From IMG/VR virus record IMGVR_UViG_3300045391_004184, positions 1 through 64,000 of that record: a stretch of DNA of 64,000 nucleotides; one strand, 5' to 3'. Each line of letters begins with the position of its first letter. The first letter of the stretch is position 1. The position numbers and the translations under genes are program-made. Below are positions 40,952 through 63,808 of the stretch, piece after piece. The stretch comes from a virus. Under the pieces are notes generated by a model. That model did no database searches. It saw only the letters and a program-made list of their open reading frames with translations, and had not been told where the DNA came from.

Positions 40952-41231
40952 TTAATAGTTTGTCCATTTTATCATTAAATTCATTATTATGTTTTTGTTT
41001 TAAATAAATGTTATATTCATCTTCAGTCATCCACATATTTTTTGAGAACGAAAGAATTCTTTCATTAAAAAATTCCATTTCAACTTTATTATACATTTCA
41101 TAATATTTACCATTATATGGATGATCAAAATAAATATTAACAGTATTTCCCGCCCAATCTATATTGTGAATAATATAATCTGTTCCGGAAAGGGGGGTGA
41201 CACACAATGGATTTAGGTAAAATTTATTCAT
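40944..41231 (-). CDS. small protein, C-terminal HxxxFxxKMxxLL family
   Basis: Ends KHNNEFNDKMDKLLNG. Confidence 0.65.
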   Translation of the reverse strand: MNKFYLNPLCVTPLSGTDYIIHNIDWAGNTVNIYFDHPYNGKYYEMYNKVEMEFFNERILSFSKNMWMTEDEYNIYLKQKHNNEFNDKMDKLLNG

Positions 41232-41548
41232 TTCAATAATTCTTCCATTTTATCTCTGAAAGCCTCATTATGTAATTCTTTTTCTGTAATAACGTCAAAA
41301 TAATGAGCTTGAATCCAAATTTTCTTTTTACTATTTTCAGGTTTTAAATAATATTCTCGTGAATTAGAAAAGATTGTTTCAAGTCTTTCTTTATAAATCT
41401 CATATCTTTTATCACTTAAAAATTCAAAAGAAGAAATTGTACGTGCGCCAGAATCATTAATTTCCATTTCAAAAGGGGAAACAACCGGAATAACAGTTTT
41501 ATGAGCACAATTTGAATATACAGTTTTAATTTTACAATATTTCTTCAC
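41228..41548 (-). CDS. small protein, C-terminal HxxxFxxKMxxLL family
   Basis: Ends LHNEAFRDKMEELLK. ATGA overlaps on both sides. Confidence 0.65.
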   Translation of the reverse strand: MKKYCKIKTVYSNCAHKTVIPVVSPFEMEINDSGARTISSFEFLSDKRYEIYKERLETIFSNSREYYLKPENSKKKIWIQAHYFDVITEKELHNEAFRDKMEELLK

Positions 41549-41823
41549 TTTAAAAACTCTTCCATTTTACTTTTAAAATCCTCATTATGTTTCTTATGTG
41601 CAATAGATTCGATTTGATAAATTTGATGTTCTGTCCATTCTATAAATTCATTAAAATCACGTTTAATAAACCTAGGAGAAACTAATATTTGAAAATATTC
41701 GGTTGTTTTTTTATTATAAAAACTTAGGCGAATACTATCATAAGACATATCAAGATTAGCGCTATATAAACTAAATCCATAATAATCTCTTCCCCTAAAA
41801 TAGGTTTCTATTTGCGATGTCAT
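41545..41823 (-). CDS. small protein, C-terminal HxxxFxxKMxxLL family
   Basis: Ends KHNEDFKSKMEEFLK. Confidence 0.65.
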   Translation of the reverse strand: MTSQIETYFRGRDYYGFSLYSANLDMSYDSIRLSFYNKKTTEYFQILVSPRFIKRDFNEFIEWTEHQIYQIESIAHKKHNEDFKSKMEEFLK

Positions 41824-44132: not shown

Positions 44133-44380
44133 AATTCTCCTTTTAATACCTTTTCAACTAAACTTTGAATTAAAACTCTATTTTTCATAGAAACATTTGA
44201 AGGAACTCTTCCCCAAACTTTTCTCCAATCAATTTTAGTTTTATTTATTGGAGTAATAATATTCCAATTTCCAGGTAATTTTAATTTTTGTTCTTTATAT
44301 CCAATATCATTAAAAAAATATCCAGCACCACTAATATTATCTCCAAAACGATAAAATAATTCCAATAGTTTATTAATCAT
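44129..44380 (-). CDS. hypothetical small protein
   Basis: 83 aa, ATGA-coupled. Confidence 0.5.
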   Translation of the reverse strand: MINKLLELFYRFGDNISGAGYFFNDIGYKEQKLKLPGNWNIITPINKTKIDWRKVWGRVPSNVSMKNRVLIQSLVEKVLKGEL

Positions 44381-44700
44381 TTTAATATTTCATCCATCTT
44401 ATTATCAAACTTTAATTGTTCGTGAGCAATAATTAACTCTTTTACAAATTCTATAATTTCAAAATTTGTTGATTTATTCTCTTCATTTCCGGCGGCATAT
44501 CTTATAGGAATTAATGGTAAAGATCCTAATAGGCTATTTGGCTTTTTTTGAATATCTTTTTCAATTCCATACCCATATTCTTCAAAAACCATATCATAGT
44601 ACCGATTTCCAAATGAATCTTTCTCCGGTCTAAAGATAGCAAGTTTATTATCTTTAATAATTATTTTATATTCCTTAAATTGATATTCACGTTCTTGCAT
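44377..44700 (-). CDS. small protein, C-terminal HxxxFxxKMxxLL family
   Basis: Start moved to the ATG at 44700, 7 nt after the upstream stop. Ends HEQLKFDNKMDEILK. Confidence 0.6.
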   Translation of the reverse strand: MQEREYQFKEYKIIIKDNKLAIFRPEKDSFGNRYYDMVFEEYGYGIEKDIQKKPNSLLGSLPLIPIRYAAGNEENKSTNFEIIEFVKELIIAHEQLKFDNKMDEILK

Positions 44701-44707
44701 GTTTGTC

Positions 44708-45496
44708 CTATTTATGTAATGATTTACGTTTTTCTTTAGATAATAGATTTTGACGATTGGTTGCTTCTTTTCCACATTTTTTACAAGTATATCTTTGATA
44801 TTTACCAAAAGATGAATAATTATGACCATTTCTAGAAAATTCAGTACTTCCACAATTACAAACAAGATCTGTAGTATCAGTATATAAACTAAAATTAATA
44901 CTATTATCCCAAGGCTGTAATTTATGGTATAGTTCTTCTAATGCCAAAACATCAAATTTATTATATTCCTCCATTTCTTTCCAGGCGGCTTTATTTCCTT
45001 TTAAAACTTCCACCCATAATTTATGGCCGGGGAATTTCTTATGATCCAATTTCTTATATTTCTTACATAATTTATCAGATAGATATTCTAATTTATTGCT
45101 TGTAAAACCAAAGTTTTTTCTAGCAATTTTTACGGTATCAATTTTCTTATAAGAACTTGGCGGTTTTAAGCCATTAATAATAAATCTTGCGTTAAGTTTT
45201 TTAAGATCAAATGCATTAGAATTTTGACCAATAACAATATCACATTCATCTAATAGCTTCCAGATTTTCTTTAAAAGCTTCTTATCATCTTCAACGTTTT
45301 TAGCTTTACTTTGATCATGATAAATAAGTTCTTTTTTATCTAGCCATTTTGCACAAAAAGAAAGTACGAACCAATCTTGTTGAATTTGACTTAATCCAAT
45401 ATTTTGATCAAAAAGTGCCCAGGCGTGGGCTAAAATTGGGGCGGTCTCAATATCTAATAGTAATATTCGAGGACCTTTAGGAGCTTTTTTCTTCAT
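44708..45496 (-). CDS. DnaQ/RNaseH-fold 3'-5' exonuclease with C-terminal zinc ribbon
   Basis: LLLDIETAP (ExoI), GQNSNAFDLKKL (ExoII), YNKFDVLALEELY (ExoIII), CNCGS...CKKCG. Confidence 0.7.
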   Translation of the reverse strand: MKKKAPKGPRILLLDIETAPILAHAWALFDQNIGLSQIQQDWFVLSFCAKWLDKKELIYHDQSKAKNVEDDKKLLKKIWKLLDECDIVIGQNSNAFDLKKLNARFIINGLKPPSSYKKIDTVKIARKNFGFTSNKLEYLSDKLCKKYKKLDHKKFPGHKLWVEVLKGNKAAWKEMEEYNKFDVLALEELYHKLQPWDNSINFSLYTDTTDLVCNCGSTEFSRNGHNYSSFGKYQRYTCKKCGKEATNRQNLLSKEKRKSLHK

Positions 45497-45840
45497 CTTT
45501 TCTTCCTTCTTTTCTGGGCCATTGAAGAATTCTTATTAAAGATGTTATTCTTCTTTAACCAATAATATATTGATTTTTCTAATTTTTGAACTTGAGTTTC
45601 TGTTAAATTAATATCATATTCATCACTAAAAGCGTGTAAACATTCATGGAGATATGTACCTAATGTTTCTCTTGGAGATTGTCCATGTCTTATAACAATT
45701 TGTTTTAAATCAAAATTTGTTTCCCCTTCTTGTCTGTGATCTTTAGGAAAATTATCCGTCCACAATACCCTATATTTTGTATAAGGGCTTATTTGTATTT
45801 GAGAAGGTATGAGTTTTAACAATTTATTCCATTTCACCAT
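45493..45840 (-). CDS. small HExxH protein (putative zinc metallopeptidase-like)
   Basis: TYLHECLHAF. 115 aa. Confidence 0.4.
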   Translation of the reverse strand: MVKWNKLLKLIPSQIQISPYTKYRVLWTDNFPKDHRQEGETNFDLKQIVIRHGQSPRETLGTYLHECLHAFSDEYDINLTETQVQKLEKSIYYWLKKNNIFNKNSSMAQKRRKKR

Positions 45841-46099
45841 TTAATAATCTCTCCATCTTATTATTAAATTGTTCATTATGTAGATCCTTTTCAGATATAA
45901 AACAATCTTTCGAAAAAGTCGCAAATCTCCCTTTATTTAAATAAATTGATATTGTATTCATTTTTAAATGTTCTTCTCCTTCATACCATTTATCAAAATA
46001 AAATCTACCGTGCCAATTTTGATAAAATTTTTCCGTAATACTTGTGGGCCAAAATCGCATTTCTTCAAATACTTTTTCTTTCTTAAGTCTATATTTCAT
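45824..46099 (-). CDS. small protein, C-terminal HxxxFxxKMxxLL family
   Basis: Ends LHNEQFNNKMERLLNGEME. The next gene's ATG sits at the LLN|G junction. Confidence 0.65.
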   Translation of the reverse strand: MKYRLKKEKVFEEMRFWPTSITEKFYQNWHGRFYFDKWYEGEEHLKMNTISIYLNKGRFATFSKDCFISEKDLHNEQFNNKMERLLNGEME

Positions 46100-46311
46100 T
46101 TCTTTTCCAATAACCTTTTATTCTTATCTAAATTTCCCTTTAAAATAATATAACTATTTTCCATTTCATTTATAACATCTCTTATTAATACATACTTCTT
46201 ATAAGGTTTTAATTCCTTTAATTGTTTATATAATAATTTTGTTGCAAATTCTAATTCTTCTGTTATAATCTTTAATCTCTTTAAATTTCTATATTCATTA
46301 AGATTTATCAT
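46096..46311 (-). CDS. hypothetical coiled-coil protein
   Basis: 71 aa, coupled. Confidence 0.5.
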   Translation of the reverse strand: MINLNEYRNLKRLKIITEELEFATKLLYKQLKELKPYKKYVLIRDVINEMENSYIILKGNLDKNKRLLEKK

Positions 46312-46573
46312 TTAATAGTTTGTCCATTTTATCATTAAATTCTTCATAATGAATTTCTTTAATTTCATCTCTCTCATATAGATTATAATGTTCTTTTACT
46401 TCTTCAATACCAATTGCAGTTATTAGTGATTCAATTCCCCAATATTTTATAACATCATCAAGTTTAATGTGATTTAAAAGAGTTTGAGCATTGTATTTTC
46501 CTAGAACATCTGATGCGGAACATTCTGATATAACAAAATCAACCATTGGTTCTAGATCGGCGTATTGTCTCAT
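46298..46573 (-). CDS. small protein, C-terminal HxxxFxxKMxxLL family
   Basis: Ends IHYEEFNDKMDKLLNDKS. Confidence 0.65.
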   Translation of the reverse strand: MRQYADLEPMVDFVISECSASDVLGKYNAQTLLNHIKLDDVIKYWGIESLITAIGIEEVKEHYNLYERDEIKEIHYEEFNDKMDKLLNDKS

Positions 46574-46770
46574 TTTTTCAACCTAACCATATTCATTTCA
46601 ATTCTCATATCATCACTAAGAAATAAATTTGGTGTTTTTGTAATTTCACTTTCAATTGCAAGTAATTTGTGTAAATACACTTTCTTTTGACTAAAATAGT
46701 AACATTTAATTTTATGTTCTTTTTTTATTAACTTTTCTGGACGATCATTAAATTTATCCCAATTTTTCAT
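46570..46770 (-). CDS. hypothetical small protein
   Basis: 66 aa, ATGA-coupled. Confidence 0.5.
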   Translation of the reverse strand: MKNWDKFNDRPEKLIKKEHKIKCYYFSQKKVYLHKLLAIESEITKTPNLFLSDDMRIEMNMVRLKK

Positions 46771-47438
46771 TTCAAATCCTCTAATAAATGTTGCGACCGT
46801 TTTAACTTATAATTAATAAATGTTTCCTTTGGGATCACATTTTCAAATATTAATGCTGTTTTATATAATTTTTCCAAATAACGGTTTTTATCATAATTAC
46901 CGTCCCATTTATCCACAAGATTCAATGTCCCATCAGATTTATAATAAAAGAATGCTTTATCACCTTCATTATATTCCGAACCTTGTATTGCATCAAAAAC
47001 CTTTTGTTCATTTAATCTTTCGGGGTTTAAGACTTTCTGTGTCAAAGTTTTCTTCGTGCGCCATCTATTTATATCGGTAATATTTAAAATTTCTTTAGCA
47101 TAATTTTGATAAATTTCTAAAAAATCTGTCTTCTCTTCTATAATTGATTTAATGAGCTTTTCAATAAATTCTCTTAAAGCCGGTTCTCGTTTTCCGTCCC
47201 TTATAGAAGATCCTTTAGTTTTAATCTTTTGACCATCATACAATATATAGTTTTTAGCCTTTAATATAATAACTTTAGAAAATACCCCATCCGGTTCCCA
47301 TCTGATTTTTGAAGGGAATTGATTATTAAGTTCTTCTAGAAGTTTTTGTTGTTCTTCTGAAGAAAATGATTCGCCATTATTTTTTGCGACCATTATAGAA
47401 TCTGTATCACAATTTACAAGTTGGAAATTATAAGTCAT
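46767..47438 (-). CDS. family B DNA polymerase, C-terminal fragment (motif C + thumb)
   Basis: LVNCDTDSIMV (motif C, DTDS) 10 residues from the start. LKAKNYILY (KKRY-like). Confidence 0.8.
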   Translation of the reverse strand: MTYNFQLVNCDTDSIMVAKNNGESFSSEEQQKLLEELNNQFPSKIRWEPDGVFSKVIILKAKNYILYDGQKIKTKGSSIRDGKREPALREFIEKLIKSIIEEKTDFLEIYQNYAKEILNITDINRWRTKKTLTQKVLNPERLNEQKVFDAIQGSEYNEGDKAFFYYKSDGTLNLVDKWDGNYDKNRYLEKLYKTALIFENVIPKETFINYKLKRSQHLLEDLK

Positions 47439-47593
47439 TTTATAAGTCCTAATGCTTTTTTAAGTTTATAGGTTTCTGCAACAGTTTGTTTATGTAATGT
47501 TCCACCTTTTAAACGAGCTTCAATTATTTGTTCTTTTTTTAAAAGTTTTACTCGAATTTTATGTCTTTGACGATCTCGATCAATTTTATTCAT
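47435..47593 (-). CDS. small basic protein (52 aa) inside the polymerase split
   Basis: Not in the ORF track. MNKIDRDRQRHKIRVKLLKKEQIIEARLKGGTLHKQTVAETYKLKKALGLIK. ATGA overlaps on both sides. Confidence 0.5.
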   Translation of the reverse strand: MNKIDRDRQRHKIRVKLLKKEQIIEARLKGGTLHKQTVAETYKLKKALGLIK

Positions 47594-47805
47594 TTCAAAA
47601 AATCTTCCATCTTCTCGTTAAAGTTATTATCATGATCTTCTTTTTCAGAAGCTAAATAATCTTTAGGAATCATCCATCCTTTAATAATAACATAATTTGT
47701 CATTTCTTGATCAACTTTATAATATTCATTTTTATTAAATTCATCTTGTTCAAAATTATTTTTATAATGTCCATTAAAGATTTTAATTCTGTATCTCAAA
47801 TTCAC
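47590..47805 (-). CDS. small protein, C-terminal HxxxFxxKMxxLL family, inside the polymerase split
   Basis: Ends DHDNNFNEKMEDFLK. Overlaps the 3' end of the polymerase N-fragment by 23 nt. Confidence 0.6.
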   Translation of the reverse strand: MNLRYRIKIFNGHYKNNFEQDEFNKNEYYKVDQEMTNYVIIKGWMIPKDYLASEKEDHDNNFNEKMEDFLK

Positions 47806-49276
47806 TCCCTGTCGCCCATTTTATCGCTTGCTTTAAAATCTCTCTTCCATGTTTTGTAATTTCAGAAGCGCCAGATAAATAATTAAAATTTAAACCATTT
47901 GTTCCCATAAAACCATAGGCAGAGTTAATTCCAATTTTTTGGGACTGTTCAATATCTGTATAAAATCTTTCACCCGTTTCTTTCGCAAGTTTTTTATTCT
48001 TCAATCTTTCTTCCGTTAATATTTCAATGATTTGTAGAAAGTTTTTATTTGGATCTTTATGTTTGGGATAAATTTCGTATTGTCTGATAATTGAAGGATA
48101 AAGAGAACTAACATCCCATTTTATACAATTTGAATAAATTCCAGGTTTTCCATAAGAAATTGCGCCCTGAAACTCTTCTTTAATTTCATCAGCTTTTGGA
48201 ATAGAATGTCCATCTTGTAAATAACTTCTAATCATTAAAGAATTAATTTGCGATCCTGTTGCGGATTCTATTACACGCTGAAAACTCATAGGAACGATTT
48301 GAGTCCAATAAAATAATGAGGGGGCCATAAGATCAAATAATTTTAAAGCATCATTACTATCATCTTTACAATAATCCTTTATAAGCTTCCATTCTTTAGG
48401 ATCTTTATATTTATAACGGATTTGAGAAGCATCATAAAACGTTCTATTAGCGTCTATAAGCCCTTCTTGTTCAATGATCTTCTTAAGACCATATGATTCA
48501 TACTTTTTACTTGCTATATCGTATTTAATGGCTAAAAACATGGTGTCCACAAGTTCTCGGCCATAAATATATGCTTTCCTATAATGAATATCTTGAGTTT
48601 GATCTTTTCTAAATTTAGATTCATAAGGGTTAAATTTAATAGGACTTTTATCCATTCCTAATTCTAATTGAATACCTTCTTTATCTGCGATATATTGGAG
48701 GTAGGGAAGATCGTAATTATAAATATTGTGCCCGCAAATAATAGCTGGGTTTTTTTCTCGCACCCATTGGCACCAGGCTTCTAACATTTCTCCTTGAGAC
48801 CAATATTCATCATATGCAAATAATTTTATTTCTACTTTATCTTTATTTCTATATGTATTAGAAATTAAAAGTACTTTTGCGCTCTCGTCCATTTTTAAAC
48901 TTGTGGACTCAATATCAAATGTCAATATGGGAAGATCTTTTGGAGAAAGACCTTTATAATATGTTAGACCTTTATTTATTAGAGAATTTTCTTTTAAATC
49001 ACCGATTGTAAAAGTATCTTTTTCTTTAAGTCTTTTCTTATTGTAATAATATTCACTAATGCTTTTATATTGTTTACCATATTTAAAATGGAGGTTTCCT
49101 TTTAATTTTACCCAATCTTCTTTTTCTTTTCTGGAAGACAATATCCAATAACTATTATCAATTATAGTGGATTTAATTTCATTATTTTCTAAATGAAAGA
49201 TTTCTAATTGTCCATCTAATGGTTCTATGGACACGATTTTTTGAAAATCATTTCTTCCATATATAAGTTTATTCAT
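47783..49276 (-). CDS. family B DNA polymerase, N-terminal fragment (3'-5' exonuclease + motifs A and B)
   Basis: FDIESTS (ExoI), GHNIYNYDLPYL (ExoII), YCKDDSNDALKL (ExoIII), WDVSSLYPSII (motif A), KIGINSAYG (motif B), ITKHGR. Confidence 0.85.
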   Translation of the reverse strand: MNKLIYGRNDFQKIVSIEPLDGQLEIFHLENNEIKSTIIDNSYWILSSRKEKEDWVKLKGNLHFKYGKQYKSISEYYYNKKRLKEKDTFTIGDLKENSLINKGLTYYKGLSPKDLPILTFDIESTSLKMDESAKVLLISNTYRNKDKVEIKLFAYDEYWSQGEMLEAWCQWVREKNPAIICGHNIYNYDLPYLQYIADKEGIQLELGMDKSPIKFNPYESKFRKDQTQDIHYRKAYIYGRELVDTMFLAIKYDIASKKYESYGLKKIIEQEGLIDANRTFYDASQIRYKYKDPKEWKLIKDYCKDDSNDALKLFDLMAPSLFYWTQIVPMSFQRVIESATGSQINSLMIRSYLQDGHSIPKADEIKEEFQGAISYGKPGIYSNCIKWDVSSLYPSIIRQYEIYPKHKDPNKNFLQIIEILTEERLKNKKLAKETGERFYTDIEQSQKIGINSAYGFMGTNGLNFNYLSGASEITKHGREILKQAIKWATGSEFEIQN

Positions 49277-49577
49277 TTAAGAGTTTTTCCATTTTGTTAT
49301 TAAACTCTTTATCATGAGTTTCTTTTTGTAGTCTATTTATAAAATCTTCAAATTTTTCTTTTATTGTATAATGTTTGCCTCCAGACATTTCAATGATTGT
49401 TGTGTCTCCGTTTTTTTCCAAGGAATTAATATTATTTATATTAATGAGTTTTTCTCTTTCAATTAATTGTTGGGGATATGTTGAACCTCCATAAAAAGTT
49501 CCAAAAGATCCTATGTTTTGAGATTGAGGGATATAAGATTGAAATTCCGCAACGGTTATCTTAATATAATTATTCAT
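49269..49577 (-). CDS. small protein, C-terminal HxxxFxxKMxxLL family
   Basis: Ends THDKEFNNKMEKLLNE. Confidence 0.65.
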   Translation of the reverse strand: MNNYIKITVAEFQSYIPQSQNIGSFGTFYGGSTYPQQLIEREKLININNINSLEKNGDTTIIEMSGGKHYTIKEKFEDFINRLQKETHDKEFNNKMEKLLNE

Positions 49578-49894
49578 TTTAACAATTCATCCATCTTATT
49601 TTGAAAAGCTTTTCCGTGACTTTGATAAAATATTTCTTCTGGAGTTTCTTTTACATTCATTTCGCCCCACGATTTTGTATAAAGTGTATTGCCTTCTTTT
49701 GAAGAAGTGATTCTTAAAATTTCATCAGCTTTTATATATTCAACAAATTCCGCACTTTCAACATATGTAGTTTGAACTTGTGAATTTAAAATTGGTTGAA
49801 AAGTTGGGGATGTATTAATGGTGGCTCCAGATTGAATCCAATATCTTACATCACTTTTTTGAACTCTAGTAATTTTAATAAAATCATTATTCAA
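49574..49894 (-). CDS. small protein, C-terminal HxxxFxxKMxxLL family
   Basis: Ends SHGKAFQNKMDELLK. Confidence 0.65.
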   Translation of the reverse strand: MNNDFIKITRVQKSDVRYWIQSGATINTSPTFQPILNSQVQTTYVESAEFVEYIKADEILRITSSKEGNTLYTKSWGEMNVKETPEEIFYQSHGKAFQNKMDELLK

Positions 49895-50217
49895 TTTATG
49901 TCCTCTTTTCTTTCAGGCCCTGGAACTTGTTTTAAAATTTCCTGATACATATCACTTTCTTCTACGCAAGAAATATGTGCAACATGAACTTTTTTAATAG
50001 CCTGTTGAATTTCATCCTCTTTATTAACTTTTCCTAAATAATAATATTCTTCATCATAATCTAATAAAATACCTTCATATTGCATTGGGCTGGTTTCTAG
50101 AATTTGTTGTCCTTCTAAAGAATGCGAAAAGGATTGAACAAGATTTGTTGTAATAATAATTCTTTGGCCCACAAATGATAGAAAGAACGAATCAAGGTTT
50201 TTATCTTCTTTGGTCAT
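49891..50217 (-). CDS. hypothetical protein
   Basis: 108 aa, coupled. Confidence 0.5.
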   Translation of the reverse strand: MTKEDKNLDSFFLSFVGQRIIITTNLVQSFSHSLEGQQILETSPMQYEGILLDYDEEYYYLGKVNKEDEIQQAIKKVHVAHISCVEESDMYQEILKQVPGPERKEDIN

Positions 50218-55730: not shown

Positions 55731-56033
55731 TTATTTGTCAAGTAACTCATTCATTTTTATGTTAAAGTCTTTATTATGCATTTCTTTTATATTCATTACT
55801 TGTCGTTCATTAAATCCGTATGTTAACCCTTCTTCTGATATTAAATAGATATATCCAACAATATTGATATATTCTGGGGCACTATTTCTTTCATATTTCT
55901 TATTAAAAAAGAAGGTTGCATTATTCTCACTATAACGAAGTTTAAAAACTATTTTATCAATATGAAAAATAGGTTTATAATCATCTAAATCTGTTTCAAA
56001 AGGTATTTTTAAATAATATTCTTCATTATTCAT
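55731..56033 (-). CDS. small protein, C-terminal HxxxFxxKMxxLL family
   Basis: Ends MHNKDFNIKMNELLDK. Confidence 0.65.
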   Translation of the reverse strand: MNNEEYYLKIPFETDLDDYKPIFHIDKIVFKLRYSENNATFFFNKKYERNSAPEYINIVGYIYLISEEGLTYGFNERQVMNIKEMHNKDFNIKMNELLDK

Positions 56034-56352
56034 CTTTTAATAAATCTTCCATTTTAGAAGCAAATTGTTCATCATGCTTTAATTTTGCAAGTTTTTCGGG
56101 CTTTAAATTTTCAGCTTGAAAACCTTCTGTTCCAATCATTTCCCCATCTAGAAAATATGAGATTTGATTATTTTTTGTTTCAACAACTGCTGGTCCTGAA
56201 GGATTATGGAAGTACTTCATAATATGAAATTCTTTAATAAGATCTATCCCTTTTGTTGTTTGATAATTGGGACAAACTTTTACGAATTCTTCCTTAACAG
56301 TTGTTGTAATATGAGGTTGATCATTCCATTTAAAAGTAATAGTTCCGGTCAT
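56026..56352 (-). CDS. small protein, C-terminal HxxxFxxKMxxLL family
   Basis: Ends KHDEQFASKMEDLLKDE. Confidence 0.65.
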   Translation of the reverse strand: MTGTITFKWNDQPHITTTVKEEFVKVCPNYQTTKGIDLIKEFHIMKYFHNPSGPAVVETKNNQISYFLDGEMIGTEGFQAENLKPEKLAKLKHDEQFASKMEDLLKDE

Positions 56353-56675
56353 TTCTCCTCCAGTTTATTAACATTAAAATTTTTATAACAATTATAATTG
56401 TATTTATATTTAAATTCTTTAGAGCCTTCTTCGGCTATTCTAATAGCCATTGCCGCAACTTGTATTGCTTCTGCGAATACATCTTCGGCTTTTTGTTTTC
56501 CTCGGTGCTGATCTATTAAAGCTTGTGATAATTCTCCAACTTCTTCAACCAATGCTGCTAATAAATGTTCATTGGAGGGAAATTTTGTTCTAGCGAAATT
56601 TAATTCCGATTCTACACAATAAATGGTTCTTTGTAATAATGGTTTATCGAATTCCTTATTTAATAACTTTTTCAT
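56349..56675 (-). CDS. MazG-like nucleotide pyrophosphohydrolase
   Basis: LVEEVGELSQAL ... EDVFAEAIQVAAMAIRIAE (E-x2-E / helical MazG pattern). 108 aa. Confidence 0.55.
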   Translation of the reverse strand: MKKLLNKEFDKPLLQRTIYCVESELNFARTKFPSNEHLLAALVEEVGELSQALIDQHRGKQKAEDVFAEAIQVAAMAIRIAEEGSKEFKYKYNYNCYKNFNVNKLEEK

Positions 56676-56953
56676 TACTTTTCCTCTTTTAAAAAGCTAG
56701 CAAATTTTTGATTAAATTCATTATTATGTTCTTCTTTACAATCAATAATACTTTCAGAAGGTTTAGTCCATACAGATTTTTTTCCATTATTAATAAGAAT
56801 GACGTTTCCATTAATTATTTCTCCATCATATTTTTGATCCCAATAATATTTATCTTCATGGGGATGGGCGATAAAATATTCATCCGTTATTCTATTCATA
56901 TTTTTCCAATAATCTTCTTTAAAATAAACTTCTTTATTTAATTTAAATCTCAT
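56675..56953 (-). CDS. small protein, C-terminal HxxxFxxKMxxLL family
   Basis: Ends EHNNEFNQKFASFLKEEK. Confidence 0.65.
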   Translation of the reverse strand: MRFKLNKEVYFKEDYWKNMNRITDEYFIAHPHEDKYYWDQKYDGEIINGNVILINNGKKSVWTKPSESIIDCKEEHNNEFNQKFASFLKEEK

Positions 56954-57309
56954 TTTAAAAGCTCTTCCATTTTTTTACTAAAATCATGTTTATGTAATCT
57001 TTTATCAATCCATTCTTTATTGAATTCCATAGAATCATTAACTCTATCTAAATCATTAGTCTTTTTTAAGGTTTTCGCGTAGAATTTGATTTTGTATACT
57101 TTTTGTCCTTCCACAATATCTTCATATGAAAATGATTCGGTTGATTTTCCAATCGTCATCTTTCTAATTTCTTTTTTACTAATTAAACTAGCAATTAAAT
57201 CGTACATACATTCATATCCGCAGCTATTTAAAAAATAGCTATCAAGTTCTCTATGCTCTTTTTCACAATTTGTACATTTTACAGCAAACTCTAATAGAGA
57301 TTCGGACAT
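56950..57309 (-). CDS. small protein, C-terminal HxxxFxxKMxxLL family (Cys-rich N-terminus)
   Basis: Ends LHKHDFSKKMEELLK. N-terminus contains CTNCEKE...CGYEC. Confidence 0.65.
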   Translation of the reverse strand: MSESLLEFAVKCTNCEKEHRELDSYFLNSCGYECMYDLIASLISKKEIRKMTIGKSTESFSYEDIVEGQKVYKIKFYAKTLKKTNDLDRVNDSMEFNKEWIDKRLHKHDFSKKMEELLK

Positions 57310-58529
57310 TATTTTAACCCCTCAAGTGGGATTGTTTTTCCCAAATGTTTGTACTCGTGCTCTTTATTTCCGCCTTCAGAAATAATCCAAATAACGTCAC
57401 TACTTAATTTAATTTGAGAACCATTATAATAACCATCTGTTAAAATTATAGAAAGATCTGGACAAGTTTTTTTAATAAGTTCTAATGTTGGAAGGGGGTC
57501 TGTTCCTCCTGCCTGTATTTCTTGTTCCTTTAATCTTCCTTTCATTTTATATTTCTTATTATAATAAACATCTGTATGCCATAATGCTAATTGACAATTT
57601 TTACTTCCGGCTTTAAGAAATTCATCAATAATATCTAAAAACTGATTAAGTTCCTTATGTGAAATAGATCCTGAAGTATCAATATACATATTAATTCTAG
57701 GAATTCTACTTAAAGATGTTCCTGGAGCATAAGATCCATATCTTTTATTGGGTCTTTTCCATGAATGTTCTCTATCTTGTGACATTACAGTTCTTTTAAT
57801 AGCCGATCTTAAAATCTGTTTATAATTAAGTTTGGTTAAAAATTTATCCAATTCCTTTAAAAAATCTTGAACATATTCTGGCGCTTGTGAATGTCCAAAT
57901 TGAGTTTTTTCTAAAGTTCTTTGAATAAGATTTTTTGCCTCCCTTGCAAGTCTTTCTTTTTCTTCCTCTGATAATTGTTGCCATAAATGTTCATCGAGAG
58001 TTTGCGGTCCTTCTCCATTTCCTTCTTGGAATTTATCTTTATTAGCTTCTTTATTTTCTAATAACAATTGATAATAAACTTCCATGGATTTATGAATGGG
58101 AAATGGTTGTCCATTTTTTTGTTTCCATTCAGAAACATTAATACATCCTTTTGGAAGTCTTTGAACAATAGCACCATTTTTTTCCTTCTCTGGAATATAT
58201 TGATTAATGGCCATATCTGCTGCAATATTCCACATTTGACGCTCTTTCATATCAATTTCCATTTGCGTCCATCTAAAAATATGTTTATGCAACAAATGTA
58301 ATACTTCATGTTGTAATACTGCGACTCTTTCAGGTTTATCTAATTTTTCAAAAAAGTCAGTATTAAAATACATTTCGTATTTCTGGAGTTTTTCATTATA
58401 TCCAATGGCCGCCGTAGGAACAGTTCTTGTATCAAACTTAAAATTAAGTTCTTGAAGAAATGCCCCAATAAATGGTTCCAGATTTAAAACCTGATAAATC
58501 GCAGATTGTAATTGTTCTTTAATCTTCAT
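57309..58529 (-). CDS. VWA-domain protein with N-terminal putative metallopeptidase domain (DUF2201-type)
   Basis: VLQHEVLHLLHKH (HExxH), NIAADMAINQY, MIDAS-like YIDTSGSIS, GGTD. Confidence 0.75.
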   Translation of the reverse strand: MKIKEQLQSAIYQVLNLEPFIGAFLQELNFKFDTRTVPTAAIGYNEKLQKYEMYFNTDFFEKLDKPERVAVLQHEVLHLLHKHIFRWTQMEIDMKERQMWNIAADMAINQYIPEKEKNGAIVQRLPKGCINVSEWKQKNGQPFPIHKSMEVYYQLLLENKEANKDKFQEGNGEGPQTLDEHLWQQLSEEEKERLAREAKNLIQRTLEKTQFGHSQAPEYVQDFLKELDKFLTKLNYKQILRSAIKRTVMSQDREHSWKRPNKRYGSYAPGTSLSRIPRINMYIDTSGSISHKELNQFLDIIDEFLKAGSKNCQLALWHTDVYYNKKYKMKGRLKEQEIQAGGTDPLPTLELIKKTCPDLSIILTDGYYNGSQIKLSSDVIWIISEGGNKEHEYKHLGKTIPLEGLK

Positions 58530-59812: not shown

Positions 59813-60040
59813 TTATTCCCCCTTTAGGAATGAGTTAAATTTGTTATTAAAATCTTTATTATGTTCTTCTTTTACACTTTTAAATCTTTCAGGATAATAT
59901 CCAGTTTCTCTATTATCATTATTTATAATAAAAACCTTCCAATTTGTTGAAAATATTACTTTATATATCTTACCTTCAGTAATAAATTTATTATCACCGG
60001 CATTAATGCAAATAACTTCTTCTCCGGCTTTAAACATCAA
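59813..60040 (-). CDS. small protein, C-terminal HxxxFxxKMxxLL family (KOW/SH3-like N-terminus)
   Basis: MMFKAGEEVICINAG... ends EHNKDFNNKFNSFLKGE. Confidence 0.65.
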   Translation of the reverse strand: MMFKAGEEVICINAGDNKFITEGKIYKVIFSTNWKVFIINNDNRETGYYPERFKSVKEEHNKDFNNKFNSFLKGE

Positions 60041-61011
60041 TAATCGCTTCCAATTCCCATTGACATTCTTTTATCTTCAAATCCTTTATGATATTCAAGA
60101 ATTTCTTTATGTAATTCTTCTATTACAACTTCAATTGTTTTATCATGAAGTTTTGAACGAACAATTATTTCTCTAATATCCGCTGGAGTAAAATCATCTG
60201 TTTTTTTAGATTGAATTAATTCCTCAGCTTTAATACTTATCGGTTCTTTTGCAAAAAACTTTAATAATTCTAATCTTTGTGATGAATTTGGACATCCGAC
60301 TTTAATTTTATCATCAAATCTTCCACGTCTGTTTACAAGATTAGATTGAAAATTATTAACATAATTCGTGGTTGCTAGGATAAATACTGGAATTTTAAAG
60401 GTTTTTTCTTGATTATCTAATAATGATAATAGAGAACTATCAGAAGGCATTCTTCTATCTTCCATTTCAACGCCTCCTATATCCTCTACAATCAATATAA
60501 GCTTTTCTGTTCCATCGTATTCAAAGGATTTAATAAAATCTTTAATTTGATGGGATTCATATTTATCGGTATGCCAGATAATTACTGTTGTTTTTCCATC
60601 TGCTACATATTTATTGGCGACCACGTTTATAGCGGTGCTTTTACCGCTTCCAGGGGGTCCATAAAGCAACATTCCTCTTTTGGGAATATCAATACCCATT
60701 TGAGGGTATAAATCTAATTTATTAAAGAAACAATCAATTTTATCGGTAATATTTTGCGTATTTACAAAAGTTTCTAGGATTTTATCGCTTACAAATGAGG
60801 TGGTTTCTAATTTTAGACCTCTGCTAGTTTTTTTAATGCTATATATTCCAGGATGAACTTTATAAGGTTCTAATTGATTTTCATCTTCAATATATTCCAA
60901 TTGGACAAATGTTCCATCAGGGGATAACGATGCATAGTCGCTTTCGTTTATTTTAAAACCTTCAGGAAGTTCGGCTAGTTTTAATTTAGAGCTTATTTTA
61001 AAGTGTCCCAT
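60037..61011 (-). CDS. classical AAA+ ATPase
   Basis: Walker A GPPGSGKST, Walker B LILIVEDIGG, sensor-1 ILATTN. Confidence 0.8.
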   Translation of the reverse strand: MGHFKISSKLKLAELPEGFKINESDYASLSPDGTFVQLEYIEDENQLEPYKVHPGIYSIKKTSRGLKLETTSFVSDKILETFVNTQNITDKIDCFFNKLDLYPQMGIDIPKRGMLLYGPPGSGKSTAINVVANKYVADGKTTVIIWHTDKYESHQIKDFIKSFEYDGTEKLILIVEDIGGVEMEDRRMPSDSSLLSLLDNQEKTFKIPVFILATTNYVNNFQSNLVNRRGRFDDKIKVGCPNSSQRLELLKFFAKEPISIKAEELIQSKKTDDFTPADIREIIVRSKLHDKTIEVVIEELHKEILEYHKGFEDKRMSMGIGSDY

Positions 61012-61271
61012 TATTCTCCCCCATTAATAATCTTATCGGCTTTTTCATAGAAAACTTTAGTATGTTCTTCTTTTTCTGAAATTAATTCACTATAATGAAA
61101 AAGCATATCGCCGTAATTCGCATTGGGGTTTTTTAAACGAACAACTTTTTTATTATTAGTATCATGAACTACTTCATAAAATTCAATAAAATTATATCCG
61201 TAATATTCATTATCTCTAATAATATGATATCTGTGTGGTAATAAATTTACTCTGTTAATTTTATATTTCAT
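61011..61271 (-). CDS. small protein, degenerate member of the C-terminal motif family
   Basis: N-terminal MKYKINRVNLLPHRYH is paralogous to 61268..61516. Ends EEHTKVFYEKADKIINGGE. Confidence 0.6.
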   Translation of the reverse strand: MKYKINRVNLLPHRYHIIRDNEYYGYNFIEFYEVVHDTNNKKVVRLKNPNANYGDMLFHYSELISEKEEHTKVFYEKADKIINGGE

Positions 61272-61516
61272 TTTAACATTTCTTCTATTTTATTATTAAA
61301 ATCTTCATTATGTTCATCTTTTTCGGATATTAATTCACTTGGTCTAAAAATCATATTATGATCAGGTCCTTCAGGACTTTTTAATGAAATTAAACCAATG
61401 TAATTACTATTATTACTTTCATAAAAAGTTTCAAAATCAAAACTAAAATATTTACCATCTAAAATATTATGTCTTCTAAAAGGTGATAAGTTTTCCCTAT
61501 TAAGCTTATATTTCAT
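61268..61516 (-). CDS. small protein, C-terminal HxxxFxxKMxxLL family
   Basis: Ends EHNEDFNNKIEEMLK. Confidence 0.65.
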   Translation of the reverse strand: MKYKLNRENLSPFRRHNILDGKYFSFDFETFYESNNSNYIGLISLKSPEGPDHNMIFRPSELISEKDEHNEDFNNKIEEMLK

Positions 61517-62411
61517 TTAAAATTCTAATATATTCCCTTTCAGTCTCTTCTAAATTTAAATTATATCTGAAATCTTCTACAACATAAGATCTTGTGTCTA
61601 ATGCTGTTAATTTTACGTCCGCATTTCTAGAAATCGCGGGAACCGCACAATGAACTCTTCCACTAATAACTTTATCGGCATTTTTCATAATTTCTAAAGT
61701 TTCTTCCCAGCTTTTTAATACTTTTGGTTCTGGAAGTCCTATTTCTACGGCCTTTAATATTTCTTCAGAAAAAGCACAATATACTTCAGGTTTATATTTC
61801 TTATAGAATTCAAGGTATTGATTATAATATTCATTAAGTTTGTTTTTATCTTTCCAATCATCTTTTGAAATGGTTTTTTGGGGATCGCACCAGATCATTA
61901 TATTATTGAATCTACTAGTTTTTTCATTATTATCATATGCAAAATATGCAGGGCATGGTAATAGTTCATTTTCAATATTTGCATTAATTAATAATTCATT
62001 TGCCAAATGATCTCTTGTAATGATTTTATGGCGCCCGAATAATTTATGCATTCCTTCAATTTCTCTTGTTCTTCTTAATATTTTACTATTAATATCTCCA
62101 AGATTCATACAGGTTCCAATTCCCATAAATAGTTTCTTAGAATCTTTATGTAATTCAAATATGTTTAATAGGTTCTTATATTTTTGGCTTTCTTGAAAAC
62201 TATCCCATAACCAGGGAGTTCCACATACTATTAATATATCATATTTATTATTTAAATACAATTCATTATTTTCCATTGGTTTATGATCATTTAAAAATAG
62301 ATAATCATGGGTATGGGTTTTAAAAGCTTTTGATAATAGATTTTTAATACCTTTAACAATTACGCCATCTGTTGGATTATTTTGATCGGCACCTATTAAT
62401 AGTATATTCAT
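61506..62411 (-). CDS. polysaccharide pyruvyl-transferase-like protein (tentative)
   Basis: ILLIGADQNNPTDGVI ... ITRDHLANELL ... VISGRVHCAVPAISRN resembles the PS_pyruv_trans layout from memory. Confidence 0.4.
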   Translation of the reverse strand: MNILLIGADQNNPTDGVIVKGIKNLLSKAFKTHTHDYLFLNDHKPMENNELYLNNKYDILIVCGTPWLWDSFQESQKYKNLLNIFELHKDSKKLFMGIGTCMNLGDINSKILRRTREIEGMHKLFGRHKIITRDHLANELLINANIENELLPCPAYFAYDNNEKTSRFNNIMIWCDPQKTISKDDWKDKNKLNEYYNQYLEFYKKYKPEVYCAFSEEILKAVEIGLPEPKVLKSWEETLEIMKNADKVISGRVHCAVPAISRNADVKLTALDTRSYVVEDFRYNLNLEETEREYIRILNEI

Positions 62412-62704
62412 TTTAAGAATTCTTCCATCTTATTATTAAAGTCTTTATCATGTATTTCTTTTTCATTCATCAAATAATCTTTATGCCAGCTTCCTAAATA
62501 TTCATTTGAATCATAAATTTCTATACAATCATAAAAATCATCACTTTTTGATCCTTTATATTCTTTTTCATATTCAATTTCAATAATTCTATTTAATTCC
62601 TTAACATAAATTTTAAATCCATTTTTTAACTTTTCATATGATGAATCTTCAGCATCAGATTTAAAAACTTTATCAATTTCTTTTTCCTTAAACATATATC
62701 TCAT
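62408..62704 (-). CDS. small protein, C-terminal HxxxFxxKMxxLL family
   Basis: Ends IHDKDFNNKMEEFLK. Confidence 0.65.
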   Translation of the reverse strand: MRYMFKEKEIDKVFKSDAEDSSYEKLKNGFKIYVKELNRIIEIEYEKEYKGSKSDDFYDCIEIYDSNEYLGSWHKDYLMNEKEIHDKDFNNKMEEFLK

Positions 62705-62955: not shown

Positions 62956-63527
62956 AATTTAATAATTGCAACCTGATCTTGTACAAAGTTTATAAGTTTC
63001 TCTGGTTTATCTTTTAAAAATTCATCAACCGCTAATTTTGCTCCAGGACAAGTGGGAGCATTATAATCATCAAATACAATAATTCCATTAGGAACTGTTC
63101 TATTATAAAAGAATTCTAACGATTCTTTAACGGATGTATAAATATCGCAATCTAAATGTACTAAACTAAATTTTTCATCTTTTATGACATCTGATGTTTC
63201 TTTAGGAAATAGTCCTTTATGAAATGATACATTCTTATGGGGTTTTAATAGTTCTTGAACATATTCTAATGAAGTGTTTTTAAAATCACCTTTTTTATGA
63301 AGATCAATACCTTTAATAGATTCTGGCATTCCTTCAAAAGTATCAAATAGATATAAATGTTTATTGGGATTATTTGATGCTAATAAAAAAGCTGTTCCGC
63401 CTTTCCATACACCGACTTCCGCAATAGATCCTGGAAGTTTTTCTGTTTGTTTGCAATATTCCACAAGTTTAAATAAACGTGGCCTGTCAACTACAGTATT
63501 ATTTGTTGCTTCTTTTGGTAAATTCAT
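62952..63527 (-). CDS. TylF/macrocin-O-methyltransferase-family SAM-dependent methyltransferase
   Basis: GSIAEVGVWKGGTAFLLA, LYLFDTFEGMPE, HLDCDIYTS, GIIVFDDYN...CPGAKLAVDEF. Confidence 0.7.
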   Translation of the reverse strand: MNLPKEATNNTVVDRPRLFKLVEYCKQTEKLPGSIAEVGVWKGGTAFLLASNNPNKHLYLFDTFEGMPESIKGIDLHKKGDFKNTSLEYVQELLKPHKNVSFHKGLFPKETSDVIKDEKFSLVHLDCDIYTSVKESLEFFYNRTVPNGIIVFDDYNAPTCPGAKLAVDEFLKDKPEKLINFVQDQVAIIKL

Positions 63528-63808
63528 TTTAATAATTGCTCCATTTTCTGTTCAAATTGTTCATCATGTATTTCTTTTAAACTTATAACAATTCTTTTGG
63601 GAATAGTTAATTTTTTAATTCCATCAACTAAAAGACAAATATGTTCTTCACTATATTTAAAGTCTTTTGACGCTTCTAGTCCTTCATAGTCATTATCATA
63701 TTTCCAATCAATACCACCAAAATGAAATCCTTTCCTGGACCATTTAATAACTGTAACACAACTTTCATATTCTTTTTCAAATAGCTCTTTATGGATTTTA
63801 TATCTCAC
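63524..63808 (-). CDS. small protein, C-terminal HxxxFxxKMxxLL family
   Basis: GTG start (GTGA overlap). Ends IHDEQFEQKMEQLLK. Confidence 0.6.
   Translation of the reverse strand: MRYKIHKELFEKEYESCVTVIKWSRKGFHFGGIDWKYDNDYEGLEASKDFKYSEEHICLLVDGIKKLTIPKRIVISLKEIHDEQFEQKMEQLLK

Follow-up and report, generated by a model that had tools for sequence, protein, structure and literature searches.

A family B DNA polymerase (PolB) is encoded as two separate genes in the virus record IMGVR_UViG_3300045391_004184, of which positions 1 to 64,000 were analyzed (hereafter the window, 64,000 nucleotides, nt). The break lies within the catalytic palm, directly before motif C, and two small open reading frames (ORFs) lie between the pieces. 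It is likely that this replicative enzyme is produced as two polypeptides that come together noncovalently, and that the genes-in-pieces arrangement has an endonuclease-linked origin. That the polymerase is assembled from two polypeptides, as a first-pass annotation of this DNA had proposed, is well supported by a split at the same position in 83 of the best 120 homologs of the N-terminal piece, by invariant catalytic residues, by five relatives in which the stop of one piece overlaps the start of the other, by the lack of any deletion and by a full fold in a structural model.

Four cistrons follow one another head to tail on the minus strand, to which all window coordinates given below refer. 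The first, PolB-N (47783-49276; 497 amino acids, aa), comprises the N-terminal domain, the Exo I-III exonuclease, the first part of the palm, the fingers and a long helix ending ...KWAT, and carries Exo I (FDIE; 48908-48919, residues 120-123), Exo II (NIYNYDLPY; 48701-48727, residues 184-192), Exo III (YCKDD; 48359-48373, residues 302-306), motif A (DVSSLYPS; 48092-48115) and motif B (KIGINSAYG; 47912-47938). The last, PolB-C (46767-47438; 223 aa), starts MTYNFQLVN-CDTDS and comprises motif C (DTDS; 47397-47408, beginning at residue 11), the KxY motif (KAKNY; 47247-47261), the remaining palm and the thumb. Between the halves is an insert of 344 nt (47439-47782), occupied by ORF71 (47590-47805; 71 aa from a GTG at 47805, or 69 aa from a TTG at 47799 behind GGGAG) and ORF52 (47435-47593; 52 aa, a basic orphan). 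The ORF list confirmed all four genes at the positions first reported, including the previously unlisted 52-aa ORF, and the placement of the motifs and the size of the insert were likewise confirmed by coordinate; PolB-N, however, ends 46 residues after the Asn of motif B and not 47. Both pieces are recognized by Pfam: PF03104 (DNA_pol_B_exo1) matches PolB-N with E = 1e-9, and PF00136 (DNA_pol_B) is divided between PolB-N (profile positions 125-197, 40.8 bits) and PolB-C (220-344, 29.5 bits), both scores being above the cut-off of 23 bits.

ATGA overlaps had been described at every joint of the locus. These exist between ORF71 and ORF52 and between ORF52 and PolB-C, but ORF71, starting at a GTG, overlaps PolB-N by 23 nt (or by 17 nt from the TTG at 47799). 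The C-terminal tail of PolB-N, GSEFEIQN (47786-47809), is surplus relative to intact relatives, and the DNA encoding it contains the GGGAG together with the GTG/TTG start of ORF71. No terminator-like site was found in 46000-50000, and a scan for promoters and terminators was without enrichment. Because stops and starts overlap on one strand with no terminator between them, the four cistrons are probably co-transcribed and translationally coupled. A 52-nt direct repeat is also present, with copies at 47594-47645 and 49276-49327 that are 73% identical.

The joined N and C pieces were aligned with 37 uninterrupted homologs (51-56% identity, 707-745 aa). Every column filled in at least 80% of the intact homologs is also filled in the joined protein, thus there is no deletion, and the surplus is limited to nine residues at the junction (GSEFEIQN plus M) and one single-residue insertion (residue 365). 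The catalytic and exonuclease residues all fall in invariant columns, and the joined chain has the family B features Exo I (DxE), Exo II (Nx2-3[FY]D), Exo III (Yx3D), motifs A, B and C, and KxY. PolB-N by itself is 57% identical to residues 4-501 of an intact homolog, P0157 (homologous proteins are referred to by P numbers and loci by L numbers). The Asn-to-Asp spacing between motifs B and C across the joined halves is 57 (residues 451 to 508), as first calculated, and RB69 gp43 indeed has the same spacing (N564 to D621). The closest intact relatives, which are the better standard of comparison, have 48, which leaves the nine surplus residues here.

An AlphaFold2 model of the joined chain, built from that alignment, has a predicted local distance difference test score (pLDDT) of 91.0 and a predicted template modeling (TM) score of 0.82. 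The predicted fold is complete, with N-terminal, exonuclease, palm, fingers and thumb domains, and Foldseek aligns it with full-length archaeal PolB (9N, KOD and Pfu) at E = 5e-34 with TM scores of 0.78/0.74 over ~783 columns. The sole segment with a pLDDT below 50 is residues 493-498, exactly the junction. In the model the helix ...KWAT ends at residue 489, and the strand before motif C is made by PolB-C's own QLVNCD (503-508), the strands spanning residues 503-508 and 511-515. By sequence alignment to archaeal PolB structures, the break maps to ~KOD 527-537, directly before the motif C strand. Alignment of the joined fragments to PolB structures and intact homologs, the check proposed in the first-pass annotation, finds all palm and thumb elements present and bears out its claim that nothing is missing.

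In the enzyme that we envisage, PolB-N would supply the exonuclease, the motif A strand and the fingers, and PolB-C would contribute KxY, the thumb and the motif C beta-hairpin that bears the two catalytic Asp residues. With motifs A and C on different chains, the palm beta-sheet and the two-metal active site would be completed across the subunit interface. It could be objected that the locus is a decaying pseudogene, or an artifact of assembly or sequencing, and that another polymerase replicates the genome. Frameshift errors are possible in metagenomic assemblies, and 64 kb of the 87.6-kb contig is visible. Nevertheless, the same architecture recurs in 83 independently assembled relatives (JGI, ENA and Logan), the catalytic and exonuclease residues are all intact, nothing is deleted relative to intact enzymes, and the insert is 344 nt of organized coding sequence and not an indel. 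Moreover, tblastn with an intact homolog finds only these two pieces in the window. A pseudogene or artifact is thus extremely unlikely.

The split is widespread among relatives of this polymerase. The protein database contains 2,699 homologs of the N piece and 263 homologs of the C piece, nearly all of the latter 220-235 aa long; the best 120 of each were analyzed, the C pieces for their start position. Among the best 120 N-piece homologs, 83 are split at the same loop and 37 (707-745 aa) are intact, so that uninterrupted versions, which the annotation had advised looking for in homologous phages, do exist; one 527-aa homolog that appeared intact was a false motif match. Consistently, 97 of the best 120 C-piece homologs start 9-11 residues before DTDS. 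The split homologs (263 C pieces; 83 of the 120 listed N pieces) are found at 45-74% identity with invariant catalytic residues, and an alignment of 31 split C pieces shows no variation at D11, T12, D13, K62, N63 or Y64. As far as sequence can tell, this pattern shows that a two-cistron polymerase is viable in the lineage and that both pieces have remained constrained since they were separated.

Both motifs could be placed in 34 IMG/VR loci, of which 10 are split, 13 are intact with a spacing of 48, and 11 are intact with a spacing of 71-138 owing to in-frame expansion of the same loop. The long-loop intact relatives (L011, L022, L023, L026, L027, L030, L032-L035 and L037, together with P0187 and P0216; spacing 69-138) have 20-90 extra residues exactly where others are split, and where their loop begins, its sequence is similar to split-allele tails; such forms may have arisen by re-fusion or may have preceded the split. 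In a neighbor-joining (NJ) tree of the bulk of the N piece, which is crude and nearly star-like, split and intact states are interleaved with at least 16 changes. The closest relative is L041 (N piece 64% identical), and a scan of metagenome contigs for close relatives yielded 3 loci only. Near-identical DNA was not found among 50,697 phage genomes, and tblastn of the C piece against the same genomes at 1e-5 gave no match; with no close match in deposited phage genomes, no cultured relative could be used. The nearest deposited phages are Salinibacter phages, in which PolB is intact at 30% identity. Two N-piece homologs, P0180 (597 aa) and P0225 (582 aa), have an extra PF14216 domain in precomputed annotation, which suggests that another module has been fused to the split N piece.

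The relatives also bear on the alternative named in the first-pass annotation, that the 344 nt is all or part of an unrecognized self-splicing intron, the removal of which would restore one PolB frame, with the small ORFs being borne by the intron. Phage polymerase genes often contain ORF-bearing group I introns, and the annotation of gene 43B of Aeromonas phage 25 places a group IA2 intron directly behind motif B. A notional join WAT/.../TYNFQLVN would, furthermore, give a spacing of exactly 48. In five split IMG/VR loci (L003, L005, L016, L018 and L029), however, the N stop overlaps the C start with nothing between, which leaves no room for an intron, thus an obligatory intron is ruled out. 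In the 4 kb of 46000-50000 there is no Rfam match at E ≤ 10, with group I and group II intron models among those scanned, and 47420-47820 has an unremarkable folding energy (z = -1.0, matched by 18 of 100 shuffled sequences). The region is filled by coupled ORFs, one of them a clear paralog of free-standing genes, and an ATG is kept 9-11 codons before DTDS in the 97 C pieces mentioned above. Taken together, these observations make an intron very unlikely.

The sequences at the junction itself were compared between split and intact enzymes. Intact compact enzymes read W-A-x-x-K-x-[FY]-x-[IL]-[VI]-N-x-D-T-D-S, whereas the N piece of the window ends W-A-T-G-S-E-F-E-I-Q-N-stop and its C piece begins M-T-Y-N-F-Q-L-V-N-C-D-T-D-S. 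The EFEIQN of the N tail parallels the FxIVN of intact enzymes, the C head has NFQLVN, and residues 496-501 of the intact P0157 can be aligned with the N tail as well as with the C head. The strand preceding motif C appears to be present twice, as a degenerate copy in the N tail and a functional copy in the C head. The same pattern is seen in other short-tailed alleles, namely GKEFEVLN... (P0126) and GKDYNVQN... (P0128). Among the 83 split tails, the aromatic residue at W+6 is kept in 58, and divergence sets in after W+7. A WATGK[DE][YF]E signature is common to split alleles and absent from intact ones. The shared signature, in combination with the interleaved tree, is the pattern that would be expected from endonuclease-driven gene conversion with co-conversion of the flanks, but the tree has too little resolution for such a claim to be made.

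The gap between the two halves is hypervariable among relatives, and contains nothing, endonuclease genes, unrelated small ORFs or several kb of genes, or else the halves are unlinked. Six relatives carry a homing endonuclease gene between the halves. HNH-type genes of 183-198 aa occupy the gaps of L007, L010, L049 and L041 and match PHROG endonuclease and HNH-endonuclease families with best E-values from 1e-9 (L010) to 5e-17, the L010 gene having an I-HmuI NUMOD-like domain; homing endonucleases with GIY-YIG and NUMOD3 occupy the gaps of L025 and L038. These gap nuclease families are mutually unrelated by BLASTP. A 77-aa lipoprotein-like ORF is found in the gap of L046 and a 113-aa ORF without known family in that of L019. 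L042, which has the most similar C piece of all (74% identical; contig Ga0105347_1037711), has an ORF with an RF-1/GGQ peptidyl-tRNA hydrolase domain (148-489; PF00472, E = 3.4e-15) two ORFs 5' of the C piece, at the position that gap genes take elsewhere, with an 82-aa ORF between. The N piece of L047 is followed by at least seven small genes, with no C piece within 2.5 kb. The C piece of L012 (260-919) apparently lies ~8 kb upstream of the N piece of L048 (2501-4039) on the same strand, if the two loci form one 74,890-bp contig, as judged from their shared metagenome (3300020049) and length only. As with ORF71, the gap gene of several loci has its start 14-26 nt ahead of the N stop, thus the start region of the gap occupant encodes part of the N piece's C-terminal end.

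No homing endonuclease gene lies between the halves in the window, where ORF71 and ORF52 are without a match to any nuclease family, and tblastn of six gap proteins from relatives gave only chance-level matches, and hence no endonuclease relic, in the insert or the whole window. The only nuclease-like gene noticed in the replication module is 57309-58529 (406 aa), which matches PHROG 1314, 'HNH endonuclease', over its whole length (E = 5e-63) and is unrelated to the gap endonucleases of the relatives.

A layout of N half, free-standing endonuclease and C half on one strand, as in these relatives, is also that of fractured genes, which combine split inteins with an intervening endonuclease (Dassa et al. 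2009, PMC2677866). A split intein that ligates the halves after translation would restore a single polypeptide, and such genes are known from metagenomes, replication enzymes included (PMC2677866). In the window, however, the non-polymerase sequence next to the break amounts to only 8 residues in the N piece and 1-2 in the C piece, far from the ~100 aa of an N-intein and the ~35 aa of a C-intein, and Pfam reports no intein family in either piece. Unlike in fractured genes, there are no intein halves that would make trans-splicing possible, and the chance that the halves are ligated in this way is negligible.

The break lies in a surface loop that connects the helix following motif B to the strand leading into motif C, and we propose that this loop is a hot spot for free-standing homing endonuclease genes in this phage clade. 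An endonuclease gene may have been inserted there together with a short duplication of the strand-coding sequence, through which the N piece would have gained a stop and the C piece a new ATG. The split allele would then have persisted and spread, and the gap would later have undergone turnover, so that the window lineage now has ORF71 and ORF52 and the endonuclease has been lost or replaced. Because the break is common to a large clade and an HNH gene occupies the gap of L041, the break is most likely older than the insert of this phage, and ORF71 would have entered a pre-existing intercistronic gap. The same two observations leave unsupported the earlier suggestion that genes of the C-terminal-motif family, to which ORF71 belongs, can land inside an essential gene.

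The endonuclease may, on the other hand, have had no part in the fission. The loop could have grown in frame, a stop and a restart could have arisen inside it, and endonucleases or small ORFs could have come later. The 11 intact IMG/VR relatives and P0187 and P0216 have their long loops at exactly this site, the loop starts (WATGKD/ELxxW...) resemble the tails of split alleles, and the long-tailed split P0132, P0144 and P0145 adjoin long-loop intact forms in the NJ tree. For the T4-like phage 25, moreover, whether the seg endonuclease was creator or invader of the split is undecided in the literature (PMC2988022). Nevertheless, the window and several close relatives have short tails that resemble a duplicated strand, at least three unrelated endonuclease families occupy the same site, which fits cleavage-driven insertion, and the long loops are equally explicable as re-fusions after loss of the endonuclease. 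We consider an origin by loop growth unlikely, though deserving of some weight, and prefer insertion of an endonuclease gene. Given that resemblance, either fission inside an enlarged loop or re-fusion once the gap gene had gone has probably taken place in this clade as well, in whichever direction.

Several observations weigh against the preferred reading of an endonuclease-split, two-subunit enzyme. Most split N tails diverge past W+7 (E-E-W...), and the duplication is clear in some alleles only, that of the window among them. The gap of the window has neither an endonuclease nor similarity to the gap endonucleases of relatives, thus the endonuclease origin of this particular allele rests on the relatives. 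One origin followed by spread would be inseparable from many origins in a star-like NJ tree. With 64 kb of the 87.6-kb contig covered, a second polymerase may be encoded elsewhere. Finally, we infer the assembly of the subunits, and with it the coupling, the endonuclease origin and the order of events, from gene anatomy, conservation, relatives and studied precedents.

Split family B polymerases are textbook evidence of the modularity of these enzymes, and PolB of phage RM378 is divided at the boundary of its N-terminal and palm domains. The arrangement in the window fits the description of genes in pieces, in that uninterrupted homologs exist, the pieces are collinear with them and nothing is lacking, but strictly the term calls for an endonuclease gene in the gap, which is present in relatives and absent here. 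The T4-like precedent that had been cited for it is of the same kind, as gp43A/43B of T4-related phages is also a phage family B replicative polymerase in two collinear cistrons with variable intercistronic content. The two gp43 polypeptides of Aeromonas phage 25, gp43A and gp43B, are reported to co-purify and to polymerize DNA (Petrov et al. 2006, 2010, as summarized in PMC2988022), and the intercistronic content of 43A/43B in T4-related Aeromonas and Acinetobacter phages varies from 2 bp to 3 kb (PMC2988022, PMC3061061). The phage 25 gap includes a GIY-YIG-type endonuclease, and the N piece of phage 25 is 498 aa long, compared with 497 aa in the window. The site, however, is different. The T4-like split is at the fingertip between motifs A and B (PMC3061061), as checked in the phage 25 sequence, where 43A ends after DLTSLYPS, 43B begins before KILINSLYG and the endonuclease gene lies between. 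The break in the window comes instead after motif B and the helix that follows it, 10 residues before DTDS. Consistent with a different lineage, the PolB of the window is ~27% identical to the enzymes of T4-like cyanophages. In phage 25 (NC_008208; L045 19087-22956), gene 43 is interrupted twice, since 43B is also annotated as split by a group IA2 intron and its frame breaks after KILINSLYGAL.

The PolB of Methanothermobacter thermautotrophicus resembles that of the window in being split in the palm into a large exonuclease/polymerase piece and a small C-terminal piece. It is reported to be active as two polypeptides whose genes are 85 kb apart (Kelman et al. 1999; PMC3061061, PMC2677866), and its split is ~83 residues C-terminal of Pfu 467/468, roughly at Pfu 550 (PMC3061061). 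The break in the window (~KOD 527-537) and the archaeal break (~Pfu 550, by published description) are probably near each other, on opposite sides of motif C, and unlinked halves of the archaeal type are apparent in L012/L048 and in L047. An engineered split Pfu polymerase behaves like the wild type (PMC3061061), and split DNA polymerases with small unknown ORFs are reported from OM43 phages (PMC10580990), so other uncultured or marine phages are yielding similar cases. Outside polymerases, nrdA of Aeromonas phage Aeh1 is interrupted by mobE, a free-standing endonuclease gene (Friedrich et al. 2007; Crona et al. 2011, PMC3045599); the split NrdA is active (PMC2988022), and insertion-derived tails are essential for the activity of its pieces (PMC3045599). 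In Aeh1, as proposed here, the break falls in a conserved part of an essential enzyme linked to replication, which acquires new terminal tails and functions without RNA or protein splicing. In contrast to Aeh1, the window has two small non-nuclease ORFs in place of an endonuclease, and the enzyme is a different one. In the searchable library, no description of this clade or of a split at this site came to light, an absence that does not prove novelty. Natural split PolB is thus already known, and what would set the present case apart, on the comparisons made here, is a clade-wide palm split just before motif C.

By its sequence, ORF71 is a paralog of the phage's own small early proteins that end H-x3-F-N-x-K-M-E-x-[LF]-L. 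Its last 24 aa are 71% identical to those of 62408-62704, with weaker similarity further upstream, and BLASTP matches it to five other members of the family; no Pfam or PHROG match and no relative in IMG/VR was found for it. The C-terminal-motif family described in the first-pass annotation is therefore real and includes ORF71, but it is far larger than had been implied, as a tail H-x3-F-x2-K-[MFI]-x2-[LFI]-[LI] plus 0-5 residues ends 19 of the 65 tiled minus-strand ORFs (29%). The tail is ~18 residues long and stands behind otherwise dissimilar N-terminal parts, and the stop usually overlaps the ATG of the next gene. Members are spread over 36194-63808, and include 41228-41548, 41545-41823, 44377-44865, 55731-56033, 56026-56352, 56675-56953, 56950-57309, 59813-60040, 61011-61271, 61268-61516 and 63524-63808, with eight more besides.

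Five members lie within ~4 kb around the polymerase. A tandem pair is located 5' of PolB-N (49574-49894 and 49269-49577), the stop region of the second overlapping the PolB-N start, and another pair is located 3' of PolB-C (46298-46573 and 45824-46099). The protein of 49269-49577 matches Pfam FlbD (PF06289; flagellar/swarming motility) at 26.3 bits against a cut-off of 24.7, and also weakly matches PHROG 8458; FlbD would be odd for a phage early gene, and this may be a chance match.

The tail was also considered as a DNA element instead of a protein motif. In a codon-level comparison, third codon positions vary synonymously among family members, thus the constraint is at the peptide level, and the DNA-element interpretation was rejected. 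The fixed position of the tail relative to the next start codon means that it may nevertheless have a dual role. A profile of eight family members found only four clusters outside this phage among 1.84 billion representatives, which makes the family nearly exclusive to it, and the strict tail motif was absent from 38 related loci. Such a tail could be a shared docking or targeting peptide. Four small proteins 3' of PolB-N in L048 (3999-4292, 4282-4536, 5061-5351 and 5804-6091) have acidic C-terminal endings (...EVFDET, ...NSFDET, ...IFDDKD and ...DVDDD), two of them being 42% identical over the last 40 residues, which suggests that lineage-specific C-terminal-tail families recur in these phages.

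For ORF52, the only match among 5.8 billion proteins is itself, predicted there as a gene of the 87,572-bp JGI contig. It has no relative in IMG/VR, no paralog in the window by Smith-Waterman comparison with shuffling, and no Pfam or PHROG family match above threshold. A 37-nt repeat that ORF52 shares with 46705-46741 was tried as a signal of paralogy and failed at the protein level.

A more speculative scheme, to which we give a rather low probability, is that the loop is a long-lived 'landing pad' that cycles through fission by endonuclease invasion, turnover of the gap and re-fusion that leaves 20-90 extra loop residues. The gap genes would be co-translated with the polymerase, ORF71 would serve as a replisome accessory or assembly factor instead of being a passenger, and its tail would be a docking peptide shared by family members for a common partner.

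The window as a whole looks like the genome of a tailed phage (G+C 32%). The plus strand carries a structural module with the terminase large subunit, portal and a tail-fiber-like protein, and the minus strand carries a replication/early module with a primase-helicase and clamp-loader-like ATPases. Among relatives of the C piece, six GTDB contigs of 27-81 kb (L050-L055) belong to metagenome-assembled genomes (MAGs) labeled Bacteroidia, Bacteroidetes, Bacteroidales, Flavobacterium, Flavobacteriaceae and Akkermansiaceae, i.e., five are of Bacteroidota type and one is Akkermansiaceae, with the caveat that binning of phage contigs is unreliable. The clade probably infects Bacteroidota, the MAG labels being a host hint only.

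For specialists, the split polymerase is a neat and unusually well-populated case rather than a surprise, and the expanded C-terminal-tail family is the stranger feature of this genome. Annotation pipelines and marker-gene phylogenies based on PolB will mishandle these phages unless the two pieces are joined. A very large uncultured phage group appears to cut the catalytic palm itself, placing the metal-binding Asp strands of motifs A and C on separate chains, and yet the split is kept in most members. The coexisting intact, long-loop, adjacent-cistron, endonuclease-bearing and unlinked versions form a natural series, which bears on how far an active site tolerates fission, on how homing endonucleases reshape core replication genes, and on whether fission can be reversed.

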